From positions 1,229-65,228 of the forward strand of contig JBOGNK010000175.1 in NCBI GenBank assembly GCA_050747085.1: DNA of 64,000 nt, written 5' to 3'. Made by a program: the position numbers and the translations under genes. Positions 5,194-30,011 of the stretch are shown in pieces. The notes below the pieces were generated by a model. The model made no database searches and was not told the origin of the DNA. It saw only the letters and a program-made list of their open reading frames with translations. This stretch comes from Candidatus Acidiferrales bacterium (GTDB lineage: Bacteria > Acidobacteriota > Terriglobia > Acidiferrales > UBA7541). The number at the start of each line of letters is the position of its first letter. The stretch's first letter is position 1.

Positions 5194-5210
5194 CAGAGAA
5201 GTTCTGGAAA

Positions 5211-7922: not shown

Positions 7923-7949
7923 TAAGGCGACGAAAGGTTTGCTAACAAT

Positions 7950-13785: not shown

Positions 13786-13869
13786 TTCATTCGGCTACGC
13801 GCGAGAGCGGTTTACCGGCCGGACGCGCCAATGTCTGAATCGAATCTCCACGCGGCAATTCACTTTCGT

Positions 13870-15117
13870 TCAGCGCTTCGTAAGTTCCAATGCGCGTTCA
13901 GCATCCTGAATCGTGTCCGTCTTACGCCGGCGGGGACATGGCCGCGGAGGCAGCTTGAATTCCTTTTCGGGTTCGAGGAGAGGCGTGAGTCCTTGATACC
14001 AGCGCGCGACGGCCTCGACGATCCTCTCAGCGGCCTTGCCGTCGCCGTAGGGATTCTGACCCTCGGACATGTCCTGGTACGCCTTCGCATCGGTGAGCAG
14101 TTGCTCGGTTTCTCCCACGATGCGCTCACGCGACATGCCGATAATTTTCGACATTCCGAATTGCGACGCTTCCGGGCGTTCCGTGACTTTGCGCAAGACA
14201 AGAACGGGTTTCGCAAACGAAGGCGCCTCTTCCTGAACTCCGCCTGAGTCTGTGAGCACCAGAAAGCACTTGCGCAGCAAGCTCACAAATGTGACGTAGT
14301 CGAGGGGTTTCGTGAGATGAACGCGGCTGACGCCAGCGAGCAAACCGTTAACGGTTTCCTGCACGTTCGGATTCAAGTGCACGGGATAAATGACGCGGAT
14401 ATCCGAATGCCGTTCGGCCAGTTCTTTTATCGCGAGGCACATATTTTGCAGGTCGGGGCCGAAAGACTCTCGGCGGTGCGAGGTCACCAGGACGAGGCGG
14501 GAGCCGTCGTCCGGAATGCCCGCGAGTGGGGTGCCTTCCCAGGAATGCGGAAGATCCCTCAATTCACGCAAGGCGTCGACAACCGTATTGCCGGTGACGA
14601 CGATCTTCGCGGCGGGGATTCCTTCCGATAGCAGCGCATCGCGCGAAAGCGCCGTTGGAGCGAAGTGAATCTCAGTCAGAACGGACACGAGCCTTCGGTT
14701 CGCTTCTTCGGGAAACGGATTGTAGAGATCGTGACTGCGAAGGCCCGCCTCGATGTGTGCTACGGGAATCCGGCAATAGTAAGACGCGAGGGCTGATGCG
14801 AATGCGGTTGTCGTGTCGCCCTGAACGATCACGATGTTCGGCTCAAATCGATGACATGCGTTCTCGACCGTGTCGATCACACGCCCAGTCAAAGAGCTGA
14901 GCGTCTGATTCGGCCGCATCACGTCCAAGTCGAAATCCGGTTTGATCTTGAACAGTTGAAGAGCGTGATCAAGCATCGTCCGGTGCTGGCCCGTGTGCAC
15001 CACAGCCGTCTCGAAATCGTTCGAGTGGCGCCGAAGCTCATGAATCACCAGCGCGAGTTTGATGGCCTCGGGCCGCGTGCCCAGGACAGCTATGACTCGG
15101 CACTTCCGTGTTTGCAT
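13870..15117 (-). CDS. wecB: UDP-N-acetylglucosamine 2-epimerase (non-hydrolysing)
   Basis: RVIAVLGTRPEAIKLA... and DSGGVQEEAPSFAKPVLVLR signatures. Start moved to ATG 15117 (MQTRKCRVIAV). Confidence 0.9.
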   Translation of the reverse strand: MQTRKCRVIAVLGTRPEAIKLALVIHELRRHSNDFETAVVHTGQHRTMLDHALQLFKIKPDFDLDVMRPNQTLSSLTGRVIDTVENACHRFEPNIVIVQGDTTTAFASALASYYCRIPVAHIEAGLRSHDLYNPFPEEANRRLVSVLTEIHFAPTALSRDALLSEGIPAAKIVVTGNTVVDALRELRDLPHSWEGTPLAGIPDDGSRLVLVTSHRRESFGPDLQNMCLAIKELAERHSDIRVIYPVHLNPNVQETVNGLLAGVSRVHLTKPLDYVTFVSLLRKCFLVLTDSGGVQEEAPSFAKPVLVLRKVTERPEASQFGMSKIIGMSRERIVGETEQLLTDAKAYQDMSEGQNPYGDGKAAERIVEAVARWYQGLTPLLEPEKEFKLPPRPCPRRRKTDTIQDAERALELTKR

Positions 15118-15429
15118 GAATCGCCTCCCCAAGCGGGATGGATCGCGAGCGCGTTGCGCGACAGAGTGCTCGACAATGCCCACGGGCACCGGCAGGCAGA
15201 CCAGCGCGCGGCCAGGACCATGAAGCGGAAAGCACGAGCGAAACCAAATCGAAAGTCGTGTATGGCGTGTTCCCTTAAGGAATTGAAGGGTTTGTGGTTC
15301 GTTGCGTTCGCGATCAGCTTAGGGGCGGCGTTCCATTTCGGTTTCGTGCTCCGAAATGAAATACGCTGAGGGTATTCGTCTGAAGTAGGGGTCGAGTAGC
15401 GAGGCGTCTAAAACGCCGCGAACCGCGTG

Positions 15430-15457
15430 CACTCGAGCCGTCTGGTGTGCTCGAGTG
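15430..15457 (-). terminator. Candidate transcription terminator hairpin downstream of the pilX-like gene (no U-tract)
   Basis: Perfect 9-bp stem CACTCGAGC/GCTCGAGTG with a 10-nt loop, 46 nt past the stop at 15503. A second small hairpin, GGCGT-N5-ACGCC, lies at 15404-15418. Confidence 0.35.
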
Positions 15458-15502
15458 ACGCGGCTGCGGCCATTTCATTTTCTAAGACGGGAGGCGCTTT
15501 TA

Positions 15503-17536
15503 TTACGGGCGGCTCTCCTGCCAGAACGTACGCTGTACCGATGCTCCGGGCGAGGAGGGCAATACTGCGCCACTTCCTGGCTGCGGAACGGCCGTCGGGA
15601 ACCACGGCGGGCCGAATGATCCGGTACCGAAGCGCCGGTCGTAGACAGTGTTTCCCTGGCTGATGCTTACGGAGTGAGCATGGTCCTCACTGCGTCCGCC
15701 AACAATCGTCCACGTGCCGATGCTATTGCCCGGAGTCTCGAAACCAGCGTTGCCGTTCACACCACCAATCGCTGCAAGCGCCGCATCGACGGTGAGGTTT
15801 CCTCGGTTTGAGCCGCTCGAGTTCGGATAAAGGTTGATGTTTCCGTTTGTATAAATTCCGAGCACTCCGGCGTTTGTTGATGCGTTAAGCGTGTCGGACG
15901 ATGTTGAAACCGGCATACTCGTGTATGTCAGATCGCCGGTAATGCTGATGTCCGTATCGATGCTGCTGCCCGAAACGCTTCCCGTCGCAATCGTAACAGC
16001 TTGTTGGTTCGCTACTGTCCCGCTCAACCCGGTAATTTGTCCGTTGACGTATATCATGGTGGGAGACATCGGATTTCCAGAAGGATCGTCCTCCGTAATC
16101 GACGCTCCGGTGTTCGGATCTATCTGGGACGGAACGCCCGTCAGGACCTGAGTTGTGCCGCCAGAGCTCACAGTGGTTGTCCCCGCACCTGACGAGCCTG
16201 ACGCAGACGGATCCACAGTGATGGTTGTCGTGGTAGCTGAATGGCCACTTCCCTGCGTGACTGTGTAGACCTCCGTCGGATACCCGCCAGCATCAGTTCC
16301 GGCGCTCAGCGCGATCGAGGCGTTACCTGCGATGTAGAAGCCGCCGGCAGGTCCACCGCCAGATGCCCCGTACATGTTCTGACCTGAAGAATTCGTATAG
16401 TACGGAATGTAAACGCCGCTAGCCGGCGTTCCCGAACTCGGATAAGCGCCGCCCGTGACAGTCTTCAGCTCTGAGTTCATCTGGCTCTGTGTCGGCGCAT
16501 CGCTCGTGCAAGAGCCTGCCGAGCAAGCGGTGCCCGCTCCGTCAAGAACAGCCTGCGCTTGGCTGTAGCTGTTCGTCGGCGGAGTTACGGGCGCAGCTCC
16601 CGTTTGAAAGCCACCCTCAAAATTTGGCTTGTTAAAACCCCTGGGCGCATTGAGAGAGTCACTGCAACTGTTTGTCCACCAGCTAACATTCGCGCCGACC
16701 TGTGCCACCGAGTCTGTGAACGTGTAGCCGGGGTTCGTGTAGTTTCCAAAATTCCATTGGCCATCGGTGAAAAACGGTCCTGTCATGGTTCCGGGAACTA
16801 AAGGACCCTGGCAATCATCGAAGTTCGTAATATAGCCGCCCCACCTTGCGAAGCTAGGGAGGCCGCCGGTGCCAGCGGTTCCTGAGAGGCTTCGGTAGGT
16901 AATGACTCCCTGTTCGGTAACCTGCTCTTGTTCGGTGCCCGACGATTCTCCCTGGATCACGATCGTGAAGGGATAATTGAACACCCATCGGAAGTCGTCA
17001 TCATTCGGCTTGCCGTTGCATGTTGGTGGCGGAACGTCATTGGGAATGACGGGAGCACACGCATTCGAGTCAGTGGTGTTGGCTGACTCCGCCACGCTGG
17101 GCGTTCCCCATGCGACCGAAACTACCTTAAATTGTCCGTTCCACGATCCCGGATCGCCAACCTGGTAATAGCCCCCCATGTACGGCGCGTATGCGGCCGT
17201 AACCGTGGCGTTGGGCGGAGTCGTAGGGACTGCGCCGGTCATCGGAAGCGGCGGATTGACAGCGTCGTTGGCGGTGGTCGTCATCGCATTCTTGATGGCC
17301 TCTACCACCACGTTTGCGCCCGAATCAGCCGCATAGAATGATCCCCGGTAATTCCGGTAATACCCGTTGATCATCGTGTCGGAAGACGTGAGCAGCACAA
17401 TCGCGACCGCGCCGGCGCTCAGTAGCATTAGAAGAATGAGCGTGATAACGAGCGCAGCGCCCTTGGAACGCGCGCGTGCCGTATGCCGCGCGATTCCGGG
17501 GACATCAGATGTGATTGTGGTGTGGCGTGGTTTCAT
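15503..17536 (-). CDS. PilX-N-domain protein, very large Thr/Gly/Ser-rich type IV pilus minor component or tip adhesin candidate
   Basis: The N-terminus SKGAALVITLILLMLLSAGAVAIVLL...NGYYRNYRGSFYAADSGANVVVE matches the PilX N-terminal domain pattern. 677 aa. Confidence 0.65.
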   Translation of the reverse strand: MKPRHTTITSDVPGIARHTARARSKGAALVITLILLMLLSAGAVAIVLLTSSDTMINGYYRNYRGSFYAADSGANVVVEAIKNAMTTTANDAVNPPLPMTGAVPTTPPNATVTAAYAPYMGGYYQVGDPGSWNGQFKVVSVAWGTPSVAESANTTDSNACAPVIPNDVPPPTCNGKPNDDDFRWVFNYPFTIVIQGESSGTEQEQVTEQGVITYRSLSGTAGTGGLPSFARWGGYITNFDDCQGPLVPGTMTGPFFTDGQWNFGNYTNPGYTFTDSVAQVGANVSWWTNSCSDSLNAPRGFNKPNFEGGFQTGAAPVTPPTNSYSQAQAVLDGAGTACSAGSCTSDAPTQSQMNSELKTVTGGAYPSSGTPASGVYIPYYTNSSGQNMYGASGGGPAGGFYIAGNASIALSAGTDAGGYPTEVYTVTQGSGHSATTTTITVDPSASGSSGAGTTTVSSGGTTQVLTGVPSQIDPNTGASITEDDPSGNPMSPTMIYVNGQITGLSGTVANQQAVTIATGSVSGSSIDTDISITGDLTYTSMPVSTSSDTLNASTNAGVLGIYTNGNINLYPNSSGSNRGNLTVDAALAAIGGVNGNAGFETPGNSIGTWTIVGGRSEDHAHSVSISQGNTVYDRRFGTGSFGPPWFPTAVPQPGSGAVLPSSPGASVQRTFWQESRP

Positions 17537-17563
17537 GGGATCACCTCAAAGATGCGAGCCGTC

Positions 17564-19030
17564 TCAATTTCCCAAATTCGGATTGCTCATATTCCTAAGA
17601 TCGACAACTACCGAGGCTTGCTGAACGAGATAGGGACCGTTGTCAAAGCCGTTCTTGAAAGTAGGAAGTGCCGGGTCCATATTCGGCGTAGTGCGCGCCA
17701 CAACCGAAACCCGCGCGGATTGAATCAAGCTGAAGTCATAAGGATCGTTGTTCGGCGGAGGCGTCGTGGTGCAAGACGTGAATGTAACCGGATTGTTGCT
17801 CGTCCAGATGGCCCCGTTACAGAACAGCGCGGCATTATAGAAATAGGAACTGAGATCGGTTTGGGCGACCGACGGATCTTCGTTCCACACGGCCGCGCCA
17901 ACCTTGAAGCCGATAACCTGATCGGTCAATGGCTGACCGCCCCCCGCTGCACAGGGTGCACCCAAGCAACGCATCAACTGAGTATCGTTTGCGTTGGCAG
18001 GGTTCGTCTGGACGGCATACCAGACGCTTGCCGACCCAGCGCCGGGGGCGCCGAGATCTATGACGTAGGCATTCGGATTCCCGCCGCCGCCATAGGGGCC
18101 AGGCGAGATCGAGTTGTAATAGTTGTATCCATTGGGGGCGAGCGCATCGATAAAAATGCCGAGAGGGTCATCGAGCGCCCCGGGCGTCCCGTTCACGCTG
18201 GTCGTGTTATACGAATTGAGCTTTATGCAGCTAGCCAGGCTATTCGGGCATCCAGCAACGAGGGCGGACGCGTTCGAAGTCAAAGTCACCGCCGTCATGC
18301 AGAAGCTCGACTGCGATGCGAATGCCGCGGATGGATTCGACGGGCAATGCGGCTGAGTCGGAGGAATTGTCGTAAGCGGCGTGTTGCTGGGATTCAGTAC
18401 CAGCAGTTCGTCACCGGTCCTAAAATTGCTCGCGATTGTAGCCAGGGAAACCGTGTCGCTGGGATTCGCGTCGATCAAATAAATTGGCGCGACCGCGCTC
18501 GTGGTAACAGGATCTGCCGGGTTAGTAGGGATTGCGTCTGCAACACCAACGATCTGCAGCACCGGCACGGTCGGATAGAACGGCGAAGTTGCCGCGCAAC
18601 CATTGCAGGATTTGGGGCCGCCCATGATCTCGACCGAATCGAAGCAGGCGCTGGGGACAGGGTAAGCCCACGTCGCCGTGTTCACCGCACAAGCAGGAAC
18701 GCCCGCAGTTCCAGGCGAATCATTTTGGATGATGACGCCCAGAGAAATGCTTGGCGCGTTGGGCACGTTCTTTAGCAGATTTTGTCCGGCGCCGGACAAA
18801 TCCATCTCCACCTGCGCCATAGCGTTGCGAAGCCCGATGTTCACGGCCGAGAGATTTTGCTGATGCGTAATAAGCTGAACCTGTTTATTGAAAAGTGAAA
18901 AGGCGGCGCCCGCCACAACAACGAACACAACCATCGCGATCATGAGTTCAACTAGCGTGAAACCCGAGCTTGTCAGCTTCTGCATCGAGAGCTGCTGTCT
19001 GTGATGACACATGATTTTCGTTTGGGTCAT
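17564..19030 (-). CDS. PilW-like type IV minor pilin (prepilin-type N-terminal cleavage/methylation domain)
   Basis: SSG|FTLVELMIAMVVFVVVAGAAFSLF. ATG 19030 forms an ATGA overlap with the upstream stop. An alternative ATG at 18985 gives a short leader, MQKLTSSG. Confidence 0.7.
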   Translation of the reverse strand: MTQTKIMCHHRQQLSMQKLTSSGFTLVELMIAMVVFVVVAGAAFSLFNKQVQLITHQQNLSAVNIGLRNAMAQVEMDLSGAGQNLLKNVPNAPSISLGVIIQNDSPGTAGVPACAVNTATWAYPVPSACFDSVEIMGGPKSCNGCAATSPFYPTVPVLQIVGVADAIPTNPADPVTTSAVAPIYLIDANPSDTVSLATIASNFRTGDELLVLNPSNTPLTTIPPTQPHCPSNPSAAFASQSSFCMTAVTLTSNASALVAGCPNSLASCIKLNSYNTTSVNGTPGALDDPLGIFIDALAPNGYNYYNSISPGPYGGGGNPNAYVIDLGAPGAGSASVWYAVQTNPANANDTQLMRCLGAPCAAGGGQPLTDQVIGFKVGAAVWNEDPSVAQTDLSSYFYNAALFCNGAIWTSNNPVTFTSCTTTPPPNNDPYDFSLIQSARVSVVARTTPNMDPALPTFKNGFDNGPYLVQQASVVVDLRNMSNPNLGN

Positions 19031-19662
19031 GGCCGCACCATGCTCATCTGAAATGTGACCGGCGTTGAAGCGACTCCGCCGTTTAATGTAACTAATACCG
19101 TTACTCTCATGGTATCTATGGCCGCCTTCGGCCCTCCGCCGACGGCATTGATCGTAGGATCGTACGAAATCTGCCATCGCCTGGTGAATGTGGAACCGCC
19201 TCCCGCGGGCGCAGGCACACCACAGTTTGCCGGCGTATCCACACAACCGGTGCTGGTGTGAACAATTGTGCTTGTCGTGGGAGTCCCGTTCACGTCTTCG
19301 GTCTGAGTCTCGTAGTCGGCACCGTTTGCTTCGTTCACGGTCACTTGGTCGCAGAAATAGCTGCTGGCGCAGCCCGCTCCCCCGGCAAGGGCCCCGCAGA
19401 CCGTGCCGCCGGCAGGGGCGCCAGGGCAGGACAGAGTGGGATCGCTCGAGGGCAGCTTATTAAGGTCGTCCAATTTTTCCGAGGCCAGAACGTTCGCCAT
19501 ATTCATGTACCGAGAGCGAGTTCCCATGGCAACCGTGCCGGTAACGAAGGCGGCTACCGAAAGCAACCCGATGGCGAGGATCAGGATCGACACCATCACC
19601 TCGATCAGCGTGAAGCCTTCGCTCGTAATCCTTCTGCTAGTGAATTGTGTTCGTTGTGACAT
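19027..19662 (-). CDS. PilV-like type IV minor pilin
   Basis: SEG|FTLIEVMVSILILAIGLLSVA prepilin motif. Start moved to ATG 19662 (MSQRTQFTSRRITSEG). Confidence 0.7.
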   Translation of the reverse strand: MSQRTQFTSRRITSEGFTLIEVMVSILILAIGLLSVAAFVTGTVAMGTRSRYMNMANVLASEKLDDLNKLPSSDPTLSCPGAPAGGTVCGALAGGAGCASSYFCDQVTVNEANGADYETQTEDVNGTPTTSTIVHTSTGCVDTPANCGVPAPAGGGSTFTRRWQISYDPTINAVGGGPKAAIDTMRVTVLVTLNGGVASTPVTFQMSMVRP

Positions 19663-20134
19663 TTCCCACGCTCGAGACTGTGATATTGATCTGCCTACCT
19701 TGGTAGGTGATCGAAATAACTGGTGGAGCAGTATTTCCTGCACTCGTGCAGCTGCCTCCCGCCCCGTAAACCATCCCGTTGGGGCAAAGAGTAAATTCAT
19801 ATGTAGCGGCAGTGCCTCCGTTAATCGCGATGGCAGAGCTTGGGAATGGAACTGCCCGATCGGTCTGGCCCGTATTCTGGTTGATCGCGATGTACGTATC
19901 TGCCGGCGCGTGCAGGTCAAGCACGTAAATTTGACTGGTCATAATCGCTCGGTAGCGCGTCTTCGACACGGCTCCCGAGACTGCGGCGGCCATCGAGTTC
20001 ATGCGCATGTTCGCCATTGCACTGGTGAACAACGGCACCGCCAAGGCTGTAAGGATCGCGCCGACAACCAGCACGATCATGAGCTCGATTATGCTGAAGC
20101 CTCTGGATTCACGCTGCGATGAGATACGACCCAT
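19637..20134 (-). CDS. FimT/GspH-like type IV minor pilin
   Basis: SRG|FSIIELMIVLVVGAILTALAVPLF prepilin motif. Start at ATG 20134 or 20152; the longer track ORF (20215) is less likely. Confidence 0.65.
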   Translation of the reverse strand: MGRISSQRESRGFSIIELMIVLVVGAILTALAVPLFTSAMANMRMNSMAAAVSGAVSKTRYRAIMTSQIYVLDLHAPADTYIAINQNTGQTDRAVPFPSSAIAINGGTAATYEFTLCPNGMVYGAGGSCTSAGNTAPPVISITYQGRQINITVSSVGNVTTNTIH

Positions 20135-20385
20135 TTCTATTCTCTTCCTCATGCTGCAGGCATAAGTGATCTGGCCCGCTTGCGTGGTCTGGTAGGGCAA
20201 TTCGGAAGCCATCACTATCTGCGGCTATCCCTCTAAGGGACAACCACTTACGCGCCGTGTACCGCGATACACAGCCTTCGGCCAAAGTGGCGCGAGTAGA
20301 AACGTTACAGATCAGGCGGCGTGCTGGATGGGACTGCAGTTTGGAGGACTAGCGGCGGACATTTAACCAGGGGAAGGCTGATCGC

Positions 20386-21498
20386 TCACGCTGCGCTGCC
20401 GGCCCCGGCTGCCGGCGCGAGAGCAATCTGCACGAGACCAATCAGGGGGCTCGTCGTTTTCGCCTTCATACCAGCAGTCAGCACTCCCGTACGGGCGAAC
20501 GATTTCTCGCAATCCGCGGAAGACGGACCACGCATATCGCCCTCCATGTAGGCCAGGCCGGGGCATCGCGTACATGTGCCAACGTGCGCGCAATTGGAAC
20601 ACGTCGGAAGATCGCGCGACCGAATCGACCGTACGTCGTTCATCGCGGACGAATGCTCCCAAATGTCGATGAATCTTTCGCTGCGAACGTTTCCACAAGG
20701 CACCGGAAATTGCACACAGGGATAGACATCGCCATATGGAGAGATGTAGCAGGATGTATGCCCGGCGCTGCACGGGATATCGTCCATCGTACTTTCGTCC
20801 ACAGGCGCAGGCGGTGCGCAGAACTGATCCACATCTCCCACCAGGTCGGGATTATGCAAGACGTTCGCTAAATCGTCGCGGCCGATGCGCAGTTGCAGGA
20901 CCGAGGTGTTGCCGTCCATCATTGGCGTGATCGTTGGATCGAGGGTGTATTTCGCATCCAACTCCCGCGCGAGCTTCTGCACTTCCGGCCCGTCGTGCAG
21001 GTTGTAACGCATCAGGACGTTCGCGACGATAACATTCAGGCCTTGCGACCTGAGGAAACGGATCGCGCCAATCGTGCGCTTCAACGATCCGGGCAGTCGC
21101 GTGATTGCGTCATGGACTTCCGGGCGGTGCGAGTACACGCTGATCTGAACTTTGTCGACCCCAAGCGCCCTGAGACGCTTTGCCTGCTCTTCTCGAATCA
21201 TCACGGCGTTTGTTTTCAGCTTGATCTGGAACGTCAGGTCTCGCGCGCGTGCAATAATGTCGAAAAGATCGCGCCGCATGAGCGGCTCGCCGCCGCTCAA
21301 CGTCAGAAACAGAACGCCTGCTCCTGCCATTTGGTCCAGCAAGCTGAATATCTCAGCCGTGGTCATTTCACCCTTATCATCATGCTCCAGGTAGCAATGG
21401 TCGCAGCGTTCGTTGCAGCGATACGTTAGATCAAGATGGGCGCTAAGCGGCACACCGAGGCGAAAGGCCTTGCTGCTTAGCTCCTGCAACAAACTCAT
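20386..21498 (-). CDS. Radical SAM enzyme with C-terminal SPASM domain (peptide maturase type)
   Basis: CNERCDHC (CxxxCxxC). GGEPLM. SPASM Cys pattern CSAG..SCYISPYGDVYPC...CSNC...GTCTRCPG. Confidence 0.9.
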   Translation of the reverse strand: MSLLQELSSKAFRLGVPLSAHLDLTYRCNERCDHCYLEHDDKGEMTTAEIFSLLDQMAGAGVLFLTLSGGEPLMRRDLFDIIARARDLTFQIKLKTNAVMIREEQAKRLRALGVDKVQISVYSHRPEVHDAITRLPGSLKRTIGAIRFLRSQGLNVIVANVLMRYNLHDGPEVQKLARELDAKYTLDPTITPMMDGNTSVLQLRIGRDDLANVLHNPDLVGDVDQFCAPPAPVDESTMDDIPCSAGHTSCYISPYGDVYPCVQFPVPCGNVRSERFIDIWEHSSAMNDVRSIRSRDLPTCSNCAHVGTCTRCPGLAYMEGDMRGPSSADCEKSFARTGVLTAGMKAKTTSPLIGLVQIALAPAAGAGSAA

Positions 21499-21809
21499 GA
21501 ATTGGCTCCTGGGACGCGGTCTGCTTCGGCAATCGCATGGTCGGAAATAACGAGCAATCCTCGGTTTGCCAGTCCTGCCACAAACTCCTCGGCGTCGCGA
21601 CTTGCGGTTTCAGGAGGGACATCGTACTGGTCGCAAATACCAGCCACAATCGAGCTCAGCGGCGTTCGTCCATCCGCCATGCGCCAGATAAACGATCCCA
21701 GTTCGTCCAGGCTGAACAGCGTTGTGTCGCCGGCTGACATGACGATTGTTTCGCCACCTAAGACCCGGTATGCGAGAGCCGGCCCGCGGGCAATAAATCG
21801 TTCGCTCAT
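21495..21809 (-). CDS. PqqD-family peptide chaperone (RiPP recognition element)
   Basis: LFSLDELGSFIWRMADGRTPLSSIVAGICDQYDVPPETASRDAEEFVAGLANRGLL is a typical PqqD/RRE pattern. ATGA overlaps at both ends (21809/21806 and 21498/21495). Confidence 0.8.
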   Translation of the reverse strand: MSERFIARGPALAYRVLGGETIVMSAGDTTLFSLDELGSFIWRMADGRTPLSSIVAGICDQYDVPPETASRDAEEFVAGLANRGLLVISDHAIAEADRVPGANS

Positions 21810-22642
21810 CGGATCAGATCCCAAACGCGCTCGTCGGGCGCGAAGGCCAGTCTTTGCACGGGAACACATGACACGAACTCAACGGCGGCTTCGAACACGC
21901 GCTTCACGAGGTCCGTATCGCGCGCGAAGAACAGAATGTTTCGAAGCAGAGATCGCGCCGCCATGGCCGTATCGACCGAGGCCAGGCAATTCTCGCGGCC
22001 CTTCTCGAGCAGGAATGCGCCCCCGATAGGCGCAGAGACATTCTCTCCGGACCTTTGTAAAGAACCCGCGAACGGCGTTCCGTAGGCGCGATACCCATCG
22101 CCGCTGCGGCGAATGTACGAAATCTCGTCCGTCAGCAAAACAGCGTCCGGCGGAGCAAGCTGCGAAATCGTCGTCTTACCCGCACCCGAAACTCCCGTGA
22201 AAAGGAACGCGCGCCCGTTGCGGACAACGCTCGACGCGTGGAGCAGGAACCCTCCTTCTTCTGCCAGCAGCAGGGTGTGGACGATCCGGAGCACTGCGTC
22301 GATCGAGTATGGGTTCGCTTCTTGCCTCACCCAGCCACGCCGCGAAACGGCGTTCCATTCGGCCGCAAGATCGCCACGCTCGATGCGCCACACGCAGCCG
22401 CGCTTGGAAAGTTGCAACTCAGGCTCCATGCTCGCCGCGGAACTCTGAAGGAGTATGTCGAACTCAGACGAGGCGGCGGCATCCTCGCTCAAAAATCCCG
22501 CATAGCGACTTGAAAGTACTTCGTCGAAACCGGGCTTATCGGATCGCAACCGCACTGCAATGCCGCCGATTTCAATTGTTGTGGTACTGGCTGGGATTCG
22601 ACCGAGTGGCTGAACGGGCGCGATTCCGGCACGGCTGTTCAA
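21806..22642 (-). CDS. HPr-kinase-related P-loop protein (putative peptide Ser kinase)
   Basis: LLHASSVVRNGRAFLFTGVSGAGKTT (Walker A in an HprK C-terminal-like context), followed by LLTDEISYI. The size and context resemble RiPP-associated HprK-like kinases. Confidence 0.65.
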   Translation of the reverse strand: MNSRAGIAPVQPLGRIPASTTTIEIGGIAVRLRSDKPGFDEVLSSRYAGFLSEDAAASSEFDILLQSSAASMEPELQLSKRGCVWRIERGDLAAEWNAVSRRGWVRQEANPYSIDAVLRIVHTLLLAEEGGFLLHASSVVRNGRAFLFTGVSGAGKTTISQLAPPDAVLLTDEISYIRRSGDGYRAYGTPFAGSLQRSGENVSAPIGGAFLLEKGRENCLASVDTAMAARSLLRNILFFARDTDLVKRVFEAAVEFVSCVPVQRLAFAPDERVWDLIR

Positions 22643-23151
22643 GCAACATCTCCAGACAGTTTAGCCTCATATCGCACGTTTGGCCGCTGAATGATGCGGC
22701 GAAGCAGGAAATGAACGCGAAGAAGGCTGTTCCTGAGACTCGTAGACCGTTGCAACAGCATTCGGAGGATCGAACGCACCACGCCGTGGCCGGCTTCGGG
22801 ACAGAACCGTCGATCGCGACGCACAACAAATTCCACGGATCCGAGAAAGTCTTCCTTGCGCACCGGGTCGGGATCCTCGAATGGCAGTGAATCACCGCGG
22901 GTAATCAATACTCGGCCACCGGGTCGGAGTTCCTCGCGCACGACGCGATGGGTGCACAAATGGCCGCGATTGATGGCAAGAACCACATCGCCCGCCTTTG
23001 CCTGTTCAAAACGTTGTTTTCGGATTTTCAGCCCGTCTCCGGGGAAAATTGTCGGCAACATGCTTCCGCCACGCGCGATCGATCGGATTTCACCCGCAGA
23101 GTGCAGAAGTTCTACCGCCAGTTCTCGATGAATGTCGCCCGACGAACACAT
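22639..23151 (-). CDS. S24/S26-family serine peptidase (SipW-like) without a membrane anchor; putative leader peptidase
   Basis: GGSMLPTIFPGD (catalytic Ser box), GDVVLA, THRVV and ITRGDS boxes. There is no N-terminal TM segment. Confidence 0.7.
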   Translation of the reverse strand: MCSSGDIHRELAVELLHSAGEIRSIARGGSMLPTIFPGDGLKIRKQRFEQAKAGDVVLAINRGHLCTHRVVREELRPGGRVLITRGDSLPFEDPDPVRKEDFLGSVEFVVRRDRRFCPEAGHGVVRSILRMLLQRSTSLRNSLLRVHFLLRRIIQRPNVRYEAKLSGDVA

Positions 23152-23163
23152 TCCGCAATCTCT

Positions 23164-23292
23164 CTAGGAGAATTTCGCTTGAGGTCCAGAGCACTGTGCG
23201 CTGACATTACCCGTTTTGCCGCACGCAATGGCCATGGTCTCGAAAACCTGTTCGCATCGGAATGAGGGCTTCGCGTACGGCTTCTTTTGCAT
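23164..23292 (-). CDS. Candidate RiPP precursor peptide (42 aa)
   Basis: Verified by hand: MQKKPYAKPSFRCEQVFETMAIACGKTGNVSAQCSGPQAKFS*. GGAG lies 9 nt upstream of the ATG. The stop is 12 nt upstream of the peptidase gene. An alternative in-frame ATG at 23343 gives 59 aa. Confidence 0.45.
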   Translation of the reverse strand: MQKKPYAKPSFRCEQVFETMAIACGKTGNVSAQCSGPQAKFS

Positions 23293-23339
23293 CCGCGACG
23301 ACTCCGATTTCGCGTCGCTTCTCACATGAGCTTCGTCGT

Positions 23340-25454
23340 TCATTGCAGACCATTCTGGGTCAGTTTCACGGCGCACCCTCCCGTGTTTGTGGTAACCGTG
23401 GTCACGTTGCATGTGGTGTTTTCCCGTGTAGCACCAAAGTAGATGCTGGATGCCTGCCCGGAGGAACTGTCGTTATCCACAATCATGCCGGTTGGACCCA
23501 TACCCTCCTGCACAACGGTAAGACCAACACCGCCGTTCATAAACGAAGTTCCAATGTTCACCGACCCGAGATTTCCGCTCGGACTCTGCTGGTCCTCGAG
23601 AGCGCCGAAAAACAACCAGTCTGTCGCGGTCGCCGGGTTGTAGAACTCCATCAGTGGAGCCCATTGATAGCCTGGTCCGCCGCCGAGCGATTCGGACCAC
23701 TTCGGAACGCCTGCAGCAACAGTCCCGGTCGCAGTGAGCGCTACGCCGTACACCATAATAGAAGGTGGCGTCGTAGTGTTGCCGGAATTCGGGGCACAGC
23801 CAGCAACGGTTCCAGATACGCCCGTCACATAGATCAGGGCGCCCGCGGAGGTGATGCTGTTCAGGTAGGCGTTATTCACAGTCGGCTCTTCGGCATCGCA
23901 TTGGCCGCCCGTGCCAATCGGAACTGCGGCAAATGAACCCAGGTTCTTATCGCTGGCCTGCACGAGGACTCCCGAGGCCCCGCCGCTCGCGGATCCGGCC
24001 CCGCTAACCGCATAGACGAAGCCGTCTATGTCATCGACCATCGGTGTAGCGACGATCCCGCCGTGCGTTCCGCCGGTCCCCACTTGCACCGAGCTGACTT
24101 GCCCCTGCTGCGTAACCCCATAGAGATTCCCATCCGAACAACCAACGAAAACAGTTCCCGTCGCGAAGTCAACAGTCGGAGAGGTCAGCACGCCGCCACA
24201 TACTTGGACGAATCCTCCTGCACCCCAAGTTGTGTCGATGCTGGGCGACGGACCGCTGGATTCGCTGGCGCAGTCGTGGTTCACACCGTTGATTCCCATG
24301 CAGAAGACGTCCTTGATGCGATAGAGCTGCCCCACGTCGTTTCCGACGTAAGCCGTGTCCGCACCATAATCGATGTATGGCGAAGAGAGGGTGTCGGTCG
24401 AGGAACCAAATGGCAGGTCGGTCGCCGTCGCTGTTCCTGTGCCAATCGCCGGTGTTGTGGTCACAAACGTGTTGATCGTAACCGGCGCCTGAGTCGTAAT
24501 ATCGACCGTAAGTCCACCGGCTCCTGCCCGTGACGTAGTTGTACTCAGCGGCCCCCCCGCTGTATAGCCTGTACCGACGGCCGTAATTGTGATCGTGGCC
24601 ACCGGTCCATTGTTTCCGGGTCCGCTATGGCTCGCGACGCGATATGTTCCTGTTTGATTGCCATTTTGGATGATGGCTCCTGTGTCGCCAGTGTGATACT
24701 TAGTGCCGCCACTAGCGACAGTCGCAGTCACGATCTGACCAAGTCCTACTGCCTGAAGATTGCCTGCTTGTCGCCCGTCGCCTGCATTCCATGCCAGAAC
24801 ATGAAAATGCGCGGCGCCACTTCCTGACTCAACGAATGCGACTTTCTTGCCGGTTCCAGTTCCATTCTGGTCGAAAGAAAGCTCGGGAGAAGTCGTCACA
24901 GCTCCCCCGCCCGGTATTCCTTGCACGTTATATGACCAATAGACATTCGCTGAAGTACCAGCACAAAGACCCGCGGGAGTGGTTCCGCTGTACAGGTTGT
25001 TGAAGGCTACGATGTTTGGCTGAGCAGCGCTTCCTGCCGCATCGATTGGATAAACGACGAAATCGTTCGTGCAACTGGGTGCTGCCGTGAGATCGAAGCT
25101 GTATTTCGCGGGATACATCATCGGCGCGACGCCGTTCTGCCCCAGATAGATGCTCCAGTCGCGGTGCGGGCCCTTACTCGTGCTGCCAGCCTGTCCGCGG
25201 CCACCACGCCAGCCGCGGCGGCCAAGCTGCCGCTGCCACATCATCATCGCCCGCGGATCGCGCTGTGCAGCGATCATCTTGTCGATCGGACCGGTCCGCG
25301 GATAGATCAGGTGGCGCGTCGTCCAATCGGACAGGCCGGGCACGCGTTTGGCGCCGGGCTGAGAATTCTCACCAATGCCTGGAAATATCGCCAAGCTGAG
25401 GAGACATAGACCTACGAGAAAGGGACCACGCGAAAGAAGGGGTTTTCGCATCAT
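23340..25454 (-). CDS. Secreted repeat protein, probably beta-propeller (PQQ/BamB-like blades) with Gly/Thr-rich insert
   Basis: Signal peptide MMRKPLLSRGPFLVGLCLLSLAIFPG. Recurrent blade-like strands (GQLYRIKD, GNLYGVTQQG, GFVYAVSG, ALIYVTGVSG). Confidence 0.5.
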   Translation of the reverse strand: MMRKPLLSRGPFLVGLCLLSLAIFPGIGENSQPGAKRVPGLSDWTTRHLIYPRTGPIDKMIAAQRDPRAMMMWQRQLGRRGWRGGRGQAGSTSKGPHRDWSIYLGQNGVAPMMYPAKYSFDLTAAPSCTNDFVVYPIDAAGSAAQPNIVAFNNLYSGTTPAGLCAGTSANVYWSYNVQGIPGGGAVTTSPELSFDQNGTGTGKKVAFVESGSGAAHFHVLAWNAGDGRQAGNLQAVGLGQIVTATVASGGTKYHTGDTGAIIQNGNQTGTYRVASHSGPGNNGPVATITITAVGTGYTAGGPLSTTTSRAGAGGLTVDITTQAPVTINTFVTTTPAIGTGTATATDLPFGSSTDTLSSPYIDYGADTAYVGNDVGQLYRIKDVFCMGINGVNHDCASESSGPSPSIDTTWGAGGFVQVCGGVLTSPTVDFATGTVFVGCSDGNLYGVTQQGQVSSVQVGTGGTHGGIVATPMVDDIDGFVYAVSGAGSASGGASGVLVQASDKNLGSFAAVPIGTGGQCDAEEPTVNNAYLNSITSAGALIYVTGVSGTVAGCAPNSGNTTTPPSIMVYGVALTATGTVAAGVPKWSESLGGGPGYQWAPLMEFYNPATATDWLFFGALEDQQSPSGNLGSVNIGTSFMNGGVGLTVVQEGMGPTGMIVDNDSSSGQASSIYFGATRENTTCNVTTVTTNTGGCAVKLTQNGLQ

Positions 25455-25768
25455 ATTTGATCCTATACCGCTGATAAGAAGGACAGCACAACCAGCCCGC
25501 CATTGTCACTGGGACTGATGCTCTACCTGCCACGACCCCATCACAGAATCTAGCCCAAGGCTCTGCGTATTTCAATCGAAAACACAGTGTCGCTGGCCGA
25601 GGCAACGGCGAAGGTGCGCGTTCGTGGCTCCGGAAAGGTTCCGTGTCAAGGTTACATCGCACATTGAAGAGAAATGCGAGGGAAATCTGGGGTTCGAGGG
25701 TCTGCAGCGGCTCAGAAGTCTGGGGTAAATAAATGGGCATAGGCATTACCCGCTTCTGCGGCCCATAG

Positions 25769-26893
25769 CTACAGGTTGAGGTGGTTGTAATGGTCGTCGA
25801 CCGAGGATTCACGACTGGCAGATGTCTTGACCTGCGTTTGGCCACGCGGGCTGGTCCAGCGGCCTGGGATAGCGAGGCCGCAGTTCGGGCAGCATCCGTT
25901 CTTCAAACGATTCTGTTCGACATCGTGCCACGAACGGCGAATCAGCAGCGTGCGGCATGACGGGCATGACGTGTGCGCGCCGTCGCTGAAGATGTTTCCT
26001 TCATAGACGTAATGCAGCCCTGCTTCCAGCGCGATTTTCCGCGCGGCGTGCAGAGTTTCCGGTGGCGTGCGCGGCTTATCCTGCAGCTTGAAATCCGGAT
26101 GAAACGCGGTGAAGTGCAGGGGTACGTCCGGGCCTAAATGTTCGAGCACCCATTCCGACAATCGGCGCGTTTCTTCACTGGCATCGTTCAACGTCGGAAT
26201 CATCAGATTCGTCATTTCGAACCAGACGTTTGTTTCCTTCTTCAGCCATTCGAGAGTATCCAGCACGGGCTGCAAATGAGTCAGTGTAATTTTGCCGTAA
26301 AACTTCTCAGTGAACGCTTTCAGATCGATGTTCGCGGCGTCGATGTGGTCGAAAACGTCGTGGAACGCGTCGTACGTGATGTAGCCGTTCGACACCATCA
26401 CCGTATTCAGGCCGGCTTCTTTTGCCGCAGCGCAAATATCGATCACATATTCTCCCCAAATGGTCGGCTCGTTGTAGGTGAACGCGATCGAAGGGCACCC
26501 ATTGCGCTTTGCCAGCGAGACGACGTCTTCGGGCGAAATATAGGTTGAGTGAACCTGGTCGGAGTGTGACTTAGAGATATCCCAGTTCTGACAGAAAAAA
26601 CATCCCATGTTGCATCCCGCTGTGCCCATGGAAAAGATGCGCGTGCCCGGAAGGAAATGGTTGAGCGGCTTCTTCTCGATCGGATCGATCTGCAGCGCAG
26701 CCGGACGCGCGTAGCCGACGCTGTACAGCTTCCCGCCTTGGTTTACACGGATGAAGCAGAATCCCGCTTGGCCCTGCCCGATATGACAGTGCCGCGGACA
26801 CAAATAGCAATGCACTTTCCGATTTGGCTCAGGGTCCCACCAACGCGCTTCATGCAGCTCCGGCGCCGGTTCGAGTATTTTCAGGTCTGCCAT
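25769..26893 (-). CDS. amrS: AmmeMemoRadiSam-system radical SAM enzyme (PFL-activase-like)
   Basis: CYLCPRHCHI...GFCFIR N-terminal Cys cluster, GTAGCNMGCFFCQNWDIS rSAM cluster, C-terminal CPSC...CPNC ribbon. Confidence 0.85.
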   Translation of the reverse strand: MADLKILEPAPELHEARWWDPEPNRKVHCYLCPRHCHIGQGQAGFCFIRVNQGGKLYSVGYARPAALQIDPIEKKPLNHFLPGTRIFSMGTAGCNMGCFFCQNWDISKSHSDQVHSTYISPEDVVSLAKRNGCPSIAFTYNEPTIWGEYVIDICAAAKEAGLNTVMVSNGYITYDAFHDVFDHIDAANIDLKAFTEKFYGKITLTHLQPVLDTLEWLKKETNVWFEMTNLMIPTLNDASEETRRLSEWVLEHLGPDVPLHFTAFHPDFKLQDKPRTPPETLHAARKIALEAGLHYVYEGNIFSDGAHTSCPSCRTLLIRRSWHDVEQNRLKNGCCPNCGLAIPGRWTSPRGQTQVKTSASRESSVDDHYNHLNL

Positions 26894-27548: not shown

Positions 27549-30011
27549 ATGGCGAACTTTATGCAAGACGTGCGGTTCGGGCTTCGGATGCTTGTCAAGT
27601 CGCCAGGATTCACCGCCGTCGCGGTGCTTTCGCTGGGACTCGGCATCGGCGCCAACACCACAATTTTCACGCTGGTGAAAGCAATCTTTCTCCACGGCGT
27701 GCCCATCGAAGATCCCGGAAGCGTAGTTGCGCTTTACTCCACCGCACAAAGCCGCAAGGGGCCGGAGCAGCAGTTCCTGCCCACTCCTTATATGAACGCA
27801 GTCGACTACCGCCAGCAGGCCTCGAGTGTCTTTTCAGGCGCGGCAATAGTGATTCAAGACGGAATGAACTTGACGATCGGCGGCGGCAAGCCCGAACAAC
27901 AATCCGTTGAACTCGTGAACGCCAACTTTTTCGATCTCCTTGGAGTGCATCCGTTTCTGGGCCGCGGCTTTTCGCCGGAGGAAGAGAACTCGCCGCGGCC
28001 GGTTGCCGTGCTGAGCTACACGCTGTGGAACGCTCGCTTTGGCGCCGATCGCGGTGTGCTGGGAAAGACGATCCGGCTGGACGATCAGGAATATGCAGTG
28101 ATCGGAGTGATGCCCCGAAAATTCGATGCGGTCGGAAATCTGAATAGCCCGGACCTTTGGATCCCTCTTTCGATGCGCGACCAGGCATTGACTGGAGTGT
28201 TCAAGGGTTTCCTGTACGACCGCGCCTTCCGCGTGGCCACCATGGTTGCCCGGCTCAAGCCCGGCGTTACGGCACGTCAGGCGCAAGTTGCCGTCCACGA
28301 TATCGGTCTGCAGCTGGAAAAAGCATATCCGAAGCAAAATGGCGGCCGGAACGAGATGGTGATTCCCATCACTGAAACGACGATCCCTCCGCAGTTCCAT
28401 AGCGTCTTCGTGCTGGCCGGCGGGATGATGATGCTGATCGTCGGGCTGGTGCTGTTGATCGCCTGCGCAAACGTCGCGAACCTGCTCCTCGCGCGTGCGA
28501 CGAAGCGGCAGCGGGAAGTTGCCGTCAGGCTCGCGCTAGGAGCTTCGCGCTTGCGGTTGATCCGGCAACTGCTCACCGAGAGCTTCTTGCTGGCTCTCCT
28601 GGCTGGCGCGCTGGGAGTGCTCGCGGCCTTCTGGGCGAAATCGGTTCTCGTATCGTTCCTGCCTGCGGACGTAGTTGCCCATCTCGATTTCAGCATAGAC
28701 ACGCGCGTCCTTCTCTACACGCTGGGGATGGCCGTTATCGCAACACTGCTCTTTGGGCTCGTTCCCGCGCTACAGGCCTCGCGAACGGATCGCATGGCTG
28801 CGTTAAAAGACCGCACGGGCGCTCCCACAGGCAGTTCTCGCTGGTACGGCTTGCGCGGTGCGCTCGTAATGGTACAGGTTGCGTTGTCGCTGGTCGCGCT
28901 GGTGGGCGCGGGCCTGTTCATCCACAGCCTGAGCAATGCGCAAAAGATTGATCCGGGATTCGAAGTGAAGCACGAGCTGGTGACATCGATCGATCTTGCA
29001 CCCGAGCACTACCAGCAACCGCAAGCCGAAAATTTCTACCGCGACGTTGCGCAGCGTCTCGATACGCTGCCAATGGTTGCAGCGGCCAGCCTTTCCGACA
29101 CGGCTCCTTTCTCGGGATCGCTCCAGCGCACGACGTTTACAGACGGGGTCGACGCGACCGATCCGCGGAATGGCAAACTCACGCCCGTCGAAGCGATTGC
29201 GCCGGGATTTTTCGACGCAGCCGGTATTTCGCTGCTGCGCGGCCGCACGTTTACAGATCAGGACGGCGCCACAACGCAGGATGTCGCCATAGTGAACCAG
29301 GCGGCGGCGGACACGTTCTGGCCGGGCGAGGACCCGATTGGGAAGCGCCTGCATTTCCTCGGCGAGACGTGGGTGGTAAATGTCGTCGGCGAGGTGAAAA
29401 CGACAAAGTACATTTCCGTCGGCGAACCCCCACAGCCCGCGATCTATTTCCCCCTCAAGCAACACTATTCACCGGCTGTGACGCTGTACGTCCGAACGAA
29501 AGGCGATCCGACGCAGGCGATGGCCAGCGTTCGAAACACCGTGCACTCGATGATTCCGGCCGTGCCGTTGCTGCGCGTCGAAACGATGGGCCAGTTGCTT
29601 GTGGAATCGCTGACCGCTCCCAAAATGGGCGCAGACCTGCTTGGCGCCTTCGGACTGATCGCTCTCGTGCTGGCCGCAATCGGAACGTACGGTGTTATGT
29701 CGTATTCCGTGAATCAGCGCTCGCAGGAAATCGGAATCCGCATCACTCTAGGCGCGCAACCGCGAGACGTAGTGCGCTTGATCCTCGGCAGCGGTATGGC
29801 GATGGTCGCCGTCGGAATAGCGTTTGGGCTCGGCTTTTCCGTGTTGCTGGCGCGAGGTATGAATCGGCTGTTGTACGGCATCGGATCGTTTGACGCGCCA
29901 AGCTTCCTGATCACGGCAGCGATCCTGGTGCTGGTGGCGCTGGCGGCATGCTACGTGCCCGCCCGGCGTGCGATGCGCGTCGACCCGATTATCGCGCTGC
30001 GGTACGAGTAG
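27549..30011 (+). CDS. ADOP-family MacB-like permease (third paralog, no prefix domain)
   Basis: MANFMQDVRFGLRMLVKSPGFTAVAVLSLGLGIGANTTIF..., ending VDPIIALRYE. Confidence 0.9.
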   Translation: MANFMQDVRFGLRMLVKSPGFTAVAVLSLGLGIGANTTIFTLVKAIFLHGVPIEDPGSVVALYSTAQSRKGPEQQFLPTPYMNAVDYRQQASSVFSGAAIVIQDGMNLTIGGGKPEQQSVELVNANFFDLLGVHPFLGRGFSPEEENSPRPVAVLSYTLWNARFGADRGVLGKTIRLDDQEYAVIGVMPRKFDAVGNLNSPDLWIPLSMRDQALTGVFKGFLYDRAFRVATMVARLKPGVTARQAQVAVHDIGLQLEKAYPKQNGGRNEMVIPITETTIPPQFHSVFVLAGGMMMLIVGLVLLIACANVANLLLARATKRQREVAVRLALGASRLRLIRQLLTESFLLALLAGALGVLAAFWAKSVLVSFLPADVVAHLDFSIDTRVLLYTLGMAVIATLLFGLVPALQASRTDRMAALKDRTGAPTGSSRWYGLRGALVMVQVALSLVALVGAGLFIHSLSNAQKIDPGFEVKHELVTSIDLAPEHYQQPQAENFYRDVAQRLDTLPMVAAASLSDTAPFSGSLQRTTFTDGVDATDPRNGKLTPVEAIAPGFFDAAGISLLRGRTFTDQDGATTQDVAIVNQAAADTFWPGEDPIGKRLHFLGETWVVNVVGEVKTTKYISVGEPPQPAIYFPLKQHYSPAVTLYVRTKGDPTQAMASVRNTVHSMIPAVPLLRVETMGQLLVESLTAPKMGADLLGAFGLIALVLAAIGTYGVMSYSVNQRSQEIGIRITLGAQPRDVVRLILGSGMAMVAVGIAFGLGFSVLLARGMNRLLYGIGSFDAPSFLITAAILVLVALAACYVPARRAMRVDPIIALRYE

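Follow-up and report, generated by a model that had tools for sequence, protein, structure and literature searches.

What does an operon make if it combines a lasso-style leader, recognition element and kinase with a radical S-adenosylmethionine (rSAM) enzyme and a signal-peptidase-like protease, and lacks a lasso cyclase? The question is raised by five minus-strand genes in a stretch of 64,000 nucleotides from a Candidatus Acidiferrales bacterium of the Acidobacteriota (contig JBOGNK010000175.1; this whole stretch is referred to as the window). The genes encode a small Cys-containing precursor, an S24/S26 peptidase, a P-loop kinase of the ScmC family, a PqqD-type recognition element (RRE) for peptides that are made on ribosomes and then modified post-translationally (RiPPs), and an rSAM enzyme with a SPASM domain. 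Sequence comparison suggests that this RiPP operon is an acidobacterial relative of the linear polyphosphorylated peptide (LPP) pathway that gained the rSAM/SPASM maturase, a reading to which we assign a probability of about 0.7. The initial annotation of the window had instead proposed that an rSAM enzyme and a SipW-like protease replace the cyclase and B2 protease of a lasso system.

A conserved, translationally coupled gene set

All five open reading frames (ORFs) listed in the initial annotation are present at the coordinates it gave (Table 1). The five genes are tightly packed and translationally coupled, and form a real operon. The start codons of the RRE and rSAM genes overlap the preceding stop codons as ATGA (21809/21806 and 21498/21495, respectively), and the gap of 12 nt between the small ORF and the peptidase gene is as annotated. 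The third overlap (22642/22639) had also been read as ATGA but is TTGA, with the kinase initiating at TTG. The annotated upper bound of 23412 proved to be the start of the longest ORF, which lies inside the upstream gene for a 704-aa protein.

The annotation had expected the gene set to co-occur with a small Cys-containing peptide in other genomes, and this is what we found. We examined 86 loci, comprising 80 loci kept out of 128 relatives returned by a GTDB scan with one genome per species, five metagenomic loci, and the window. Nearly all are from Acidobacteriota, and the relatives from the species-representative scan are nearly all Terriglobia. Using tblastn, the ScmC-family kinase and the PqqD protein were detected in all 86 loci, the rSAM enzyme in 85, the S24 peptidase in 79 and the precursor in 74, and the order precursor-peptidase-kinase-RRE-rSAM is kept in nearly all of them. 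With about 85 loci sharing both the gene order and the precursor, the operon is more than a chance arrangement. The cassette occurs in at least 128 species-representative genomes, and the genes examined are all annotated as hypothetical.

The precursor and its predicted core

The small ORF had been described as a 42-aa Cys-containing peptide (ATG at 23292). The Cys content stands, but the precursor is probably 59 aa long. A start at 23343, also ATG and in the same frame, forms an ATGA with the TGA that closes the 704-aa gene upstream and places 22 residues before the leader Tyr, compared with 5 in the shorter form. Comparison with 30 other loci favors this start: their precursor genes begin -4 to +44 nt from the stop codon of the upstream homologue, at an ATG that leaves 16-27 residues ahead of the Tyr. 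In the 59-aa form, the predicted leader MNDEAHVRSDAKSESSRMQKKPYAKPSFRCEQVFET, which carries YxxPxF and FET, is followed by the predicted core MAIACGKTGNVSAQCSGPQAKFS of 23 aa, with two Cys and a C-terminal Ser.

The alignment of 69 distinct precursors gives the consensus KKPYxKPxFRxExVFET-MAL-x-CGK-x7-C-x6-S, in which the Tyr, Pro, Phe, VF, AL, CGK, second Cys and terminal Ser are conserved (A2, L3, C5, G6, K7, C15 and the terminal Ser in core numbering). The C-terminal Ser and the YxxPxF motif are found in every sequence, exactly two Cys in 65, a spacing of seven residues between CGK and the second Cys in 60, and FET in 39. The core is 22 aa long in 51 of the 69, and its net charge is +2 to +4 in 54. 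A strict pattern search detected one precursor copy in 71 of the 86 loci, none in 15 and never more than one. The precursor matches no NCBIfam model, even at an E-value of 10. Judged by this pattern of conservation, it is the unambiguous predicted substrate of a real, selected gene set.

One locus departs from this arrangement in that the precursor frame continues into the peptidase gene (L017:5351-6037, …SCGKVAGAVESGCSRAKFESVMKH…), which could reflect a sequencing error, the loss of the stop codon or a genuine fusion of precursor and peptidase. Four others (L018, L020, L033 and L035, at about 5100-5500) encode peptidase, kinase, RRE and rSAM together with a divergent NTP_transf_5 gene, and we found no recognizable precursor in the gap of ~400 nt 5' of their peptidase gene.

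Peptidase, recognition element and kinase

LPPs, encoded by lppA-K-B-S-D-N, were described in Bacillota (Popov et al., Nat Commun 2026;17:6633; PMC13381572). Their pathway comprises a leader peptidase similar to signal peptidase I (SpI-like, SipW-like), a discrete RRE and an HprK-like kinase. LppS cleaves the leader, whose consensus is YxxPxVLxHQxIxFETxxS, after Thr(-1) and requires the RRE, and LppK polyphosphorylates core Ser3. The authors regard SpI-like peptidases as new to RiPP pathways and LPPs as restricted to Bacillota; their text and supplements mention no radical SAM genes, and their supplementary table holds a few Acidobacteriota pairs of SpI and RRE in an unstudied network cluster (PMC13381572).

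The peptidase of the window fits its annotation as an S24/S26 Ser peptidase without a membrane anchor. Its profile matches are below cut-off (NCBIfam sigpep_I_arch, 9e-11; Pfam Peptidase_S24, 4e-4), and the best NCBIfam model is TIGR02228 (signal peptidase I, archaeal type; 41.8 versus a cut-off of 51.85), a model that the table of the LPP paper lists for each of its 126 peptidases (PMC13381572). Alignment of the protein with human SEC11A/C extends across the motifs of all three catalytic residues (SGSMEP, HRV and GDN for Ser, His and Asp), conservation of Ser30, His68 and Asp87 among 47 homologs reaches at least 95%, and no N-terminal hydrophobic anchor can be read from its sequence. A hidden Markov model (HMM) of the acidobacterial family gives 74-81 bits to three LppS-cluster proteins (Supplementary Data 1 of the LPP paper), compared with 33 for true SipW, and ~100 bits to the Acidobacteriota network cluster that was not studied in that paper. 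The protein is thus predicted to be a cytoplasmic leader peptidase of the Sec11/SipW type, homologous to LppS.

The annotated PqqD-type RRE is well supported (PF05402, 4.8e-18), and its gene overlaps its neighbors as ATGA at both ends. BLASTP relates it to the lasso B1 protein BsfB1 (E 6e-10) and to three LppB proteins (1e-9 to 8e-8), so that by homology it is a discrete RRE related to those of both lasso and LPP systems.

The P-loop protein had been annotated as HPr-kinase-like, which is right at the level of the fold superfamily, that of phosphoenolpyruvate carboxykinase (PEPCK) and HprK. Precomputed Pfam labels in a large protein database assign it and its relatives to PF27840 (ScmC), and our local Pfam copy gives sub-threshold matches only. 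The best NCBIfam matches, all far below cut-off, are ScmC of the SynChlorMet cassette and the HprK-related kinases A and B. An AlphaFold2 model (predicted local distance difference test, pLDDT, 84.7) retrieves ATP-PEPCK first in Foldseek (E 8e-9, template modeling score 0.49), followed by HprK/P (E about 5e-4), and a sequence search against the PDB returned weak matches to PEPCK P-loops only. His135, the P-loop G150-T158 and Asp172-Glu173 are invariant in 15 diverse homologs. The family is large: of the candidates scored, which were clustered at 90% identity, more than 7,300 reach E<=0.001. Identity is 56% or higher for the best 120, and those of them that carry a name come nearly all from metagenome-assembled genomes of Acidobacteriota.

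We retrieved two LPP-type loci via an LppS homolog, one from Paenibacillus (L086, precursor MEVNSLTKKQYAAPSVLSHTKVSFETKASS…) and one from Alicyclobacillus (L087), with the order kinase-RRE-peptidase-ABC exporter. Their kinases match PF27840 ScmC and not Hpr_kinase_C, a domain that is listed once for 126 neighborhoods in the domain table of the LPP paper (PMC13381572). The profile of the acidobacterial kinase family aligns with the Paenibacillus protein over 251 of 278 columns (hhalign 99.3%, E 2.6e-20), and BLASTP against the Alicyclobacillus protein gives 2e-16. Against BsfK, a characterized lasso kinase, hhalign gives 95.9% over ~46 columns around the His, the P-loop and the Asp-Asp. In the experimentally tested LppK, the C-terminus as deduced from a cloning primer (NDTFWELIS) resembles PDERAWELIR and PDERVWDLIR of our family. 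Sequence and model together point to a kinase of the PEPCK/HprK fold and a homolog of the LppK type, and the Pfam ScmC family would then include an experimentally characterized kinase type among its relatives. Taken by homology, the kinase, RRE and peptidase correspond as a trio to that of the LPP pathway.

A radical SAM/SPASM maturase

The full set of SPASM cysteines reported for the rSAM enzyme is present. Pfam detects Radical_SAM (1.5e-23) and SPASM (5e-12), and among 74 homologs conservation reaches at least 95% for C28, C32 and C35 as well as for C227, C243, C261, C300, C303, C309, C312 and C330; the eight C-terminal Cys would be enough for two auxiliary clusters. The CxxxCxxC motif begins at residue 28 and there is no fused RRE, so the enzyme needs a discrete one. 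The NCBIfam equivalog scores (AhbD 150 bits, NirJ2 147, MftC 127, WgkB 123, GeoRSP 123 and PqqE 119) are all far below cut-offs, and the nearest PDB sequences are SkfB (4e-15) and PqqE (3e-13). We predict that the protein modifies the core and is a crosslinking enzyme. Given the two invariant Cys, a Cys thioether is the most economical guess for its product. A purely linear product is made less likely by the rSAM gene, which is found in 85 of the 86 loci.

A search with PADLOC gave a single match, a generic similarity of the rSAM core to viperins, and no match for the remaining five proteins. An anti-phage defense function was rejected.

Several observations weigh against a pathway that combines LPP-type processing with a thioether. 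The similarity to the LPP leader is at the level of motifs only: 13 residues separate the Tyr from the Thr of FET here versus 15 in LPPs, and an HMM of the 18-residue leader scores LPP precursors no higher than 2,600 shuffled decoys, its best real match being the lasso precursor of L062 (E 0.027), a locus described below. FVT or FEV replaces FET in 27 of the 69 precursors, and cleavage could with equal reason be placed after the invariant Ala two residues past the Thr. At core position 3, where LPPs are phosphorylated on Ser, the window has Leu (as do 67 of the 69 precursors overall), so the kinase would have to target a different Ser. The rSAM enzyme is about equally distant from heme decarboxylases, MftC, PqqE, WgkB and sactisynthases, and for this reason thioether formation is a guess; some LPP cores from loci without an rSAM gene also hold two Cys ten residues apart, and those of our core could form a plain disulfide while the rSAM enzyme performs a different reaction. 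Finally, tblastn detected neither an exporter of the type found with the cassette elsewhere nor NTP_transf_5 in the window.

Cleavage and phosphorylation sites are nevertheless suggested by analogy. The leader is most likely cut after the Thr of FET, as in LPPs (PMC13381572). A cut after the invariant Ala, which would follow the classical -3/-1 rule of signal peptidases, was considered, and the rule was rejected as a predictor, LppS cutting after F-E-T. For the kinase, the terminal Ser that all precursors share is the best candidate target, by analogy with paeninodin-type lasso systems and because core position 3 is Leu and position 4 is not consistently Ser/Thr (Ser/Thr in 44 of 69, Ala in the window).

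A lasso cyclase is rarely found near the cassette

In lasso systems, HprK-like kinases phosphorylate the linear precursor, typically at the C-terminal Ser, and in pseudomycoidin an NTP_transf_5-type nucleotidyltransferase adds hexoses to the phosphate (PMC8498205). BsfK, the kinase of the Bsf system, is stimulated by its RRE, BsfB1 (PMC10368454). The lasso-like substrate recognition proposed in the initial annotation is supported by the YxxPx(F/L) leader motif and by the relationship of the PqqD protein to BsfB1 and of the kinase to lasso kinases. The same features would be expected of an ordinary phospho-lasso system, with the cyclase and B2 encoded elsewhere in the genome and with the rSAM enzyme and S24 peptidase as tailoring extras. 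However, neither enzyme is encoded in the window, as judged from a six-frame scan for the PP-loop SGGxDS, tblastn and Pfam searches of large ORFs for the Asn-synthetase-like cyclase, and from tblastn with BsfB2 for the B2 protease. The annotation held that a cyclase consistently adjacent to homologous sets would indicate an ordinary lasso cluster; cyclase and B2 occur within 6 kb of the cassette in one locus of the 86, L062 (PP-loop scan and BsfB2 tblastn). In addition, the core of the window has no Asp/Glu for closing a macrolactam ring and the alignment has no conserved acidic core position, and the peptidase resembles LppS, which is the enzyme that removes the leader in LPPs (PMC13381572). 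We consider the phospho-lasso alternative highly improbable.

At L062, a complete phospho-lasso cluster (115-3883, minus strand) lies back-to-back with the cassette (5233-8218). This proximity speaks for the phospho-lasso alternative, but the cluster has its own precursor, B1 and HprK-like kinase, besides B2 and a cyclase with SGGLDS. The arrangement resembles the pairing of LPP and paeninodin clusters reported from Bacilli and, as there, the leaders might be subject to cross-talk.

A second candidate cyclase, an AsnB-like gene in L001, was rejected. It encodes GATase domains, sits with genes for a carbamoyltransferase and a PEP-CTERM protein, and has no counterpart in the other loci except the L062 cyclase; we read it as polysaccharide-related.

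The secreted β-propeller protein encoded upstream

The 704-aa protein encoded upstream has a signal peptide, belongs to no Pfam family and has 848 homologs with E<=1e-5 among the candidates scored. Its profile matches the PQQ-repeat blade (PQQ, pyrroloquinoline quinone) of the 'Cake' designs and of 3hxj. The AlphaFold2 model has a pLDDT of 52, and its Foldseek matches indicate a generic β-propeller only. Homologs adjoin the cassette in 41 of the 66 loci with full flanks (62%), either directly 5' of the precursor gene or after the rSAM gene, and mostly alternate with an ABC-2 exporter (both are present in three loci). The overlap of stop and start codons suggests that here the gene is co-transcribed with the precursor.

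Such coupling raises the possibility that the matured peptide is a ligand, cofactor or partner of the secreted β-propeller, or is delivered or anchored by it, following a logic like that of PQQ or mycofactocin. Besides the overlap, and the precursor ATG at a similar distance in 30 loci, the frequent adjacency of the gene and its alternation with the exporter, the PQQ-like blades and rSAM scores against PqqE and MftC that are about as good as those against RiPP crosslinkers are in keeping with this idea. On the other hand, the gene is absent from 25 of the 66 full-flank loci and is therefore dispensable for the core pathway. The core holds neither the Glu/Tyr pair of PQQ nor the C-terminal Val-Tyr of mycofactocin, a protein with PQQ-like repeats need not bind a cofactor, and the model is unreliable. 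We regard a direct partnership as unlikely.

rSAM/SPASM enzymes are known to modify proteins before export, as anSME does for sulfatases and QhpD for QhpC. With these precedents, the enzymes could instead mature the 704-aa protein, for example at its Cys-containing C-terminus, which carries an invariant GCAxKLTQ motif, and the small ORF would then be a scaffold or regulator. But the small ORF is conserved in loci without the large gene, the cassette is complete without that gene in 25 of 66, and the small ORF carries both an RRE-binding motif and an LPP-type cleavage motif, which makes a role of the cassette in maturing the large protein very unlikely. An LPP-type pathway acting on the small precursor remains our preferred reading.

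Accessory and neighboring genes

Of the 86 loci, 40 have an NTP_transf_5 gene (PF14907, E 7e-51) next to the cassette and about 17-22 an ABC-2 exporter gene. In the window, a MacB-like ABC permease (MacB_PCD and FtsX; 27549-30011, plus strand) is encoded ~2 kb past the upstream end of the operon and is a possible exporter for the product. Closer by, ~310 nt from the 704-aa gene, lies a gene for an rSAM protein of the AmmeMemoRadiSam system (25769-26893, minus strand; TIGR04337, 1.2e-139), which is probably unrelated to the cassette.

Directly 3' of the operon (9627-20215, minus strand), minor-pilin-like genes are followed by polysaccharide genes (Table 1), an adjacency that is not conserved across the 86 loci. 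Elsewhere, PEP-CTERM (exosortase-sorted) genes stand right after the rSAM gene on the opposite strand (L001:8285-8884, L004:4774-5631 and L005:3159-3725), and L001 has in addition a gene for a family 2 glycosyltransferase (GT2) upstream and the AsnB-like and carbamoyltransferase genes downstream. The PEP-CTERM neighbors hint at a link to cell-surface or exopolysaccharide loci.

Scans for promoters and terminators gave counts no higher than in shuffled sequence. Two sigma-70-like sites were found in 19900-26000 against 2.5 expected from shuffles, which is not significant, and the junction of the 704-aa and precursor genes has no such site. Both are 5' of the 704-aa gene, in a region that possibly holds the operon promoter, on weak evidence.

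Table 1. Features of the window, and kinase genes of two LPP-type loci used for comparison.
Feature	Position	Strand	Details
rSAM/SPASM gene	20386-21498	minus	370 aa; Pfam Radical_SAM and SPASM
PqqD-type RRE gene	21495-21809	minus	104 aa; PF05402
Predicted ScmC-family P-loop kinase gene	21806-22642	minus	278 aa; PF27840; GVSGAGKTT; TTG start
S24/S26 peptidase gene	22639-23151	minus	170 aa; Sec11/SipW type (ER-type signal peptidase I)
Precursor peptide gene	23164-23343	minus	likely 59 aa; start chosen by comparison with 30 loci
Secreted β-propeller protein gene	23340-25454	minus	704 aa; accessory
Possible operon promoter region	25450-25575	minus	two sigma-70-like matches 5' of the 704-aa gene
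GspH/FimT-like gene	19637-20215	minus	type IV minor-pilin-like
PilV-like gene	19027-19920	minus	type IV minor-pilin-like
N_methyl protein gene	17564-19246	minus	type IV minor-pilin-like
PilX_N protein gene	15503-17536	minus	type IV minor-pilin-like
UDP-GlcNAc 2-epimerase gene	13870-15189	minus	polysaccharide
GT2 gene	12544-13785	minus	polysaccharide
Polysaccharide deacetylase gene	9627-11486	minus	polysaccharide
LPP-type kinase genes	L086:5948-6739; L087:4866-5654		PF27840 ScmC, not Hpr_kinase_C

Proposed pathway and significance

The chemical steps, in the order in which we would place them, are as follows. The discrete PqqD-type RRE would bind the YxxPxF motif in the leader of the ~59-aa precursor and present it to the other enzymes. 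The ScmC-family kinase would phosphorylate the presented precursor on Ser with ATP, most likely at the C-terminal Ser. The rSAM/SPASM enzyme would modify the presented core (A-L-x-C-G-K-x7-C), most likely by crosslinking it internally through one of the invariant Cys or through both, with a thioether of the kind found in sactipeptides or ranthipeptides. The LppS-type peptidase would then cut the leader in the FET↓MA↓L region, most likely at the first of these sites, to release a cationic peptide of ~22-23 residues. Many genomes supplement the set with an ABC-2 exporter, with an NTP_transf_5 protein, whose role may be to glycosylate the phosphate, or with both; in the window, as in most loci, it is accompanied instead by the secreted β-propeller protein, whose gene is probably transcribed along with it.

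A more far-reaching and tentative interpretation, which we hold at somewhat less than even odds, is that the cassette defines a new RiPP class, widespread in soil and peat Acidobacteriota, of ~22-residue cationic peptides that are rSAM-crosslinked and phosphorylated on the C-terminal Ser via LPP-type machinery and are mostly tied to a co-translated secreted β-propeller. The phosphate would perhaps be glycosylated where NTP_transf_5 is present, and the role of the peptide would perhaps be in surface or biofilm biology and not in antibiosis.

Acidobacteriota are among the most abundant soil bacteria, but they are poorly cultured and their natural products are almost unknown. The cassette would link lasso-type leader recognition, the kinase and signal-peptidase module of LPPs and the orphan ScmC/PqqD/rSAM cassettes of Haft, and would extend LPP-type machinery outside Bacillota. 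It also suggests a likely biochemical role, that of a peptide kinase, for the Pfam ScmC family. A compact five-gene set with an unambiguous precursor is suited to heterologous expression and could reveal a new rSAM reaction.

Comparison with known systems

The claim of the initial annotation that no characterized RiPP class has this gene set holds in part. The peptidase/RRE/kinase module is known from LPPs (PMC13381572) and the ScmC/PqqD/rSAM triad has been catalogued, but the union of the two in Acidobacteriota, together with a conserved core that has two Cys and ends in Ser, is undescribed in the searchable literature. Full-text searches for SynChlorMet, for ScmC with rSAM, for HPr kinase/rSAM/PqqD and for Acidobacteria RiPPs returned no description of the cassette. 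What had been proposed as a new RiPP family is better described as an rSAM-containing variant of the LPP family that overlaps the SynChlorMet-type triad.

The operon shares with the phospho-lasso systems (paeninodin, pseudomycoidin and Bsf) a YxxPxL-type leader, a discrete RRE and an HprK-like kinase, whose target is a C-terminal Ser in the case of paeninodin, ThcoK and SyanK, and also NTP_transf_5 as an optional partner. It differs from them in having no Asn-synthetase-like cyclase and no transglutaminase-like B2, and its leader peptidase is a Ser-His enzyme. The proposed replacement of lasso parts is thus correct as to the missing cyclase and B2 and the presence of an rSAM enzyme, but it is not a simple replacement, since on gene content and homology the operon is closer to LPP than to lasso systems.

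SynChlorMet (ScmC/ScmD/ScmE/ScmF; TIGR04249, TIGR04248, TIGR04250 and TIGR04251) is a cassette defined in silico and uncharacterized in NCBIfam/TIGRFAMs. It resembles our operon in placing a P-loop protein of the ScmC family next to a PqqD-family protein and an rSAM/SPASM enzyme similar to PqqE. ScmD and ScmE are among the NCBIfam matches of the RRE and the rSAM enzyme, respectively, but our proteins score far below the equivalog cut-offs, with scores (and cut-offs) of 33.8 (125) for ScmC, 33.9 (100) for ScmD, 103 (400) for ScmE and 62 (400) for the best ScmF match. The operon has one rSAM enzyme where SynChlorMet has two, and adds a peptidase and an identifiable precursor.

With sactipeptides, ranthipeptides, PQQ and mycofactocin the operon has in common a full-SPASM rSAM enzyme, a PqqD-type RRE and a small Cys-containing precursor. 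The scores of the rSAM enzyme (and the respective cut-offs) are 105 (625) for StsB, 79 (850) for AlbA, 71.5 (300) for SkfB, 127 (265) for MftC, 119 (381) for PqqE and 123 (400) for GeoRSP. Those classes have no kinase or signal-peptidase-like protease, and the precursor here has two Cys only.

The closest resemblance is to LPPs. Both systems have a cytoplasmic peptidase of the SipW/archaeal type, a discrete PqqD RRE, an 'HprK-like' kinase of Pfam ScmC and a leader with KKxYxxPx(hydrophobic), followed by FET before the core in 39 of the 69 acidobacterial precursors, and a macrolactam cyclase belongs to neither. NTP_transf_5 and ABC exporters are frequent companions, in our case of the related loci and not of the window, whereas the LPP core set includes the NTP transferase LppN and the exporter LppD; a phospho-lasso cluster is occasionally co-located (L062 here, LPP/paeninodin in Bacilli); and polysaccharide loci host LPP clusters in Bacilli, while the operon of the window adjoins polysaccharide genes. 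The acidobacterial cassette differs in its rSAM/SPASM gene (85 of 86 loci), in a short (~22 aa) and conserved core, where LPP cores are variable and precursors range from 35 to 200 aa, and in the gene order (A-S-K-B-rSAM versus A-K-B-S-D). Where an exporter is present it is of the ABC-2 type and not MsbA-like as is LppD, and a secreted β-propeller gene is often attached. LPPs have been reported from Bacillota only, whereas this cassette is found in Acidobacteriota.

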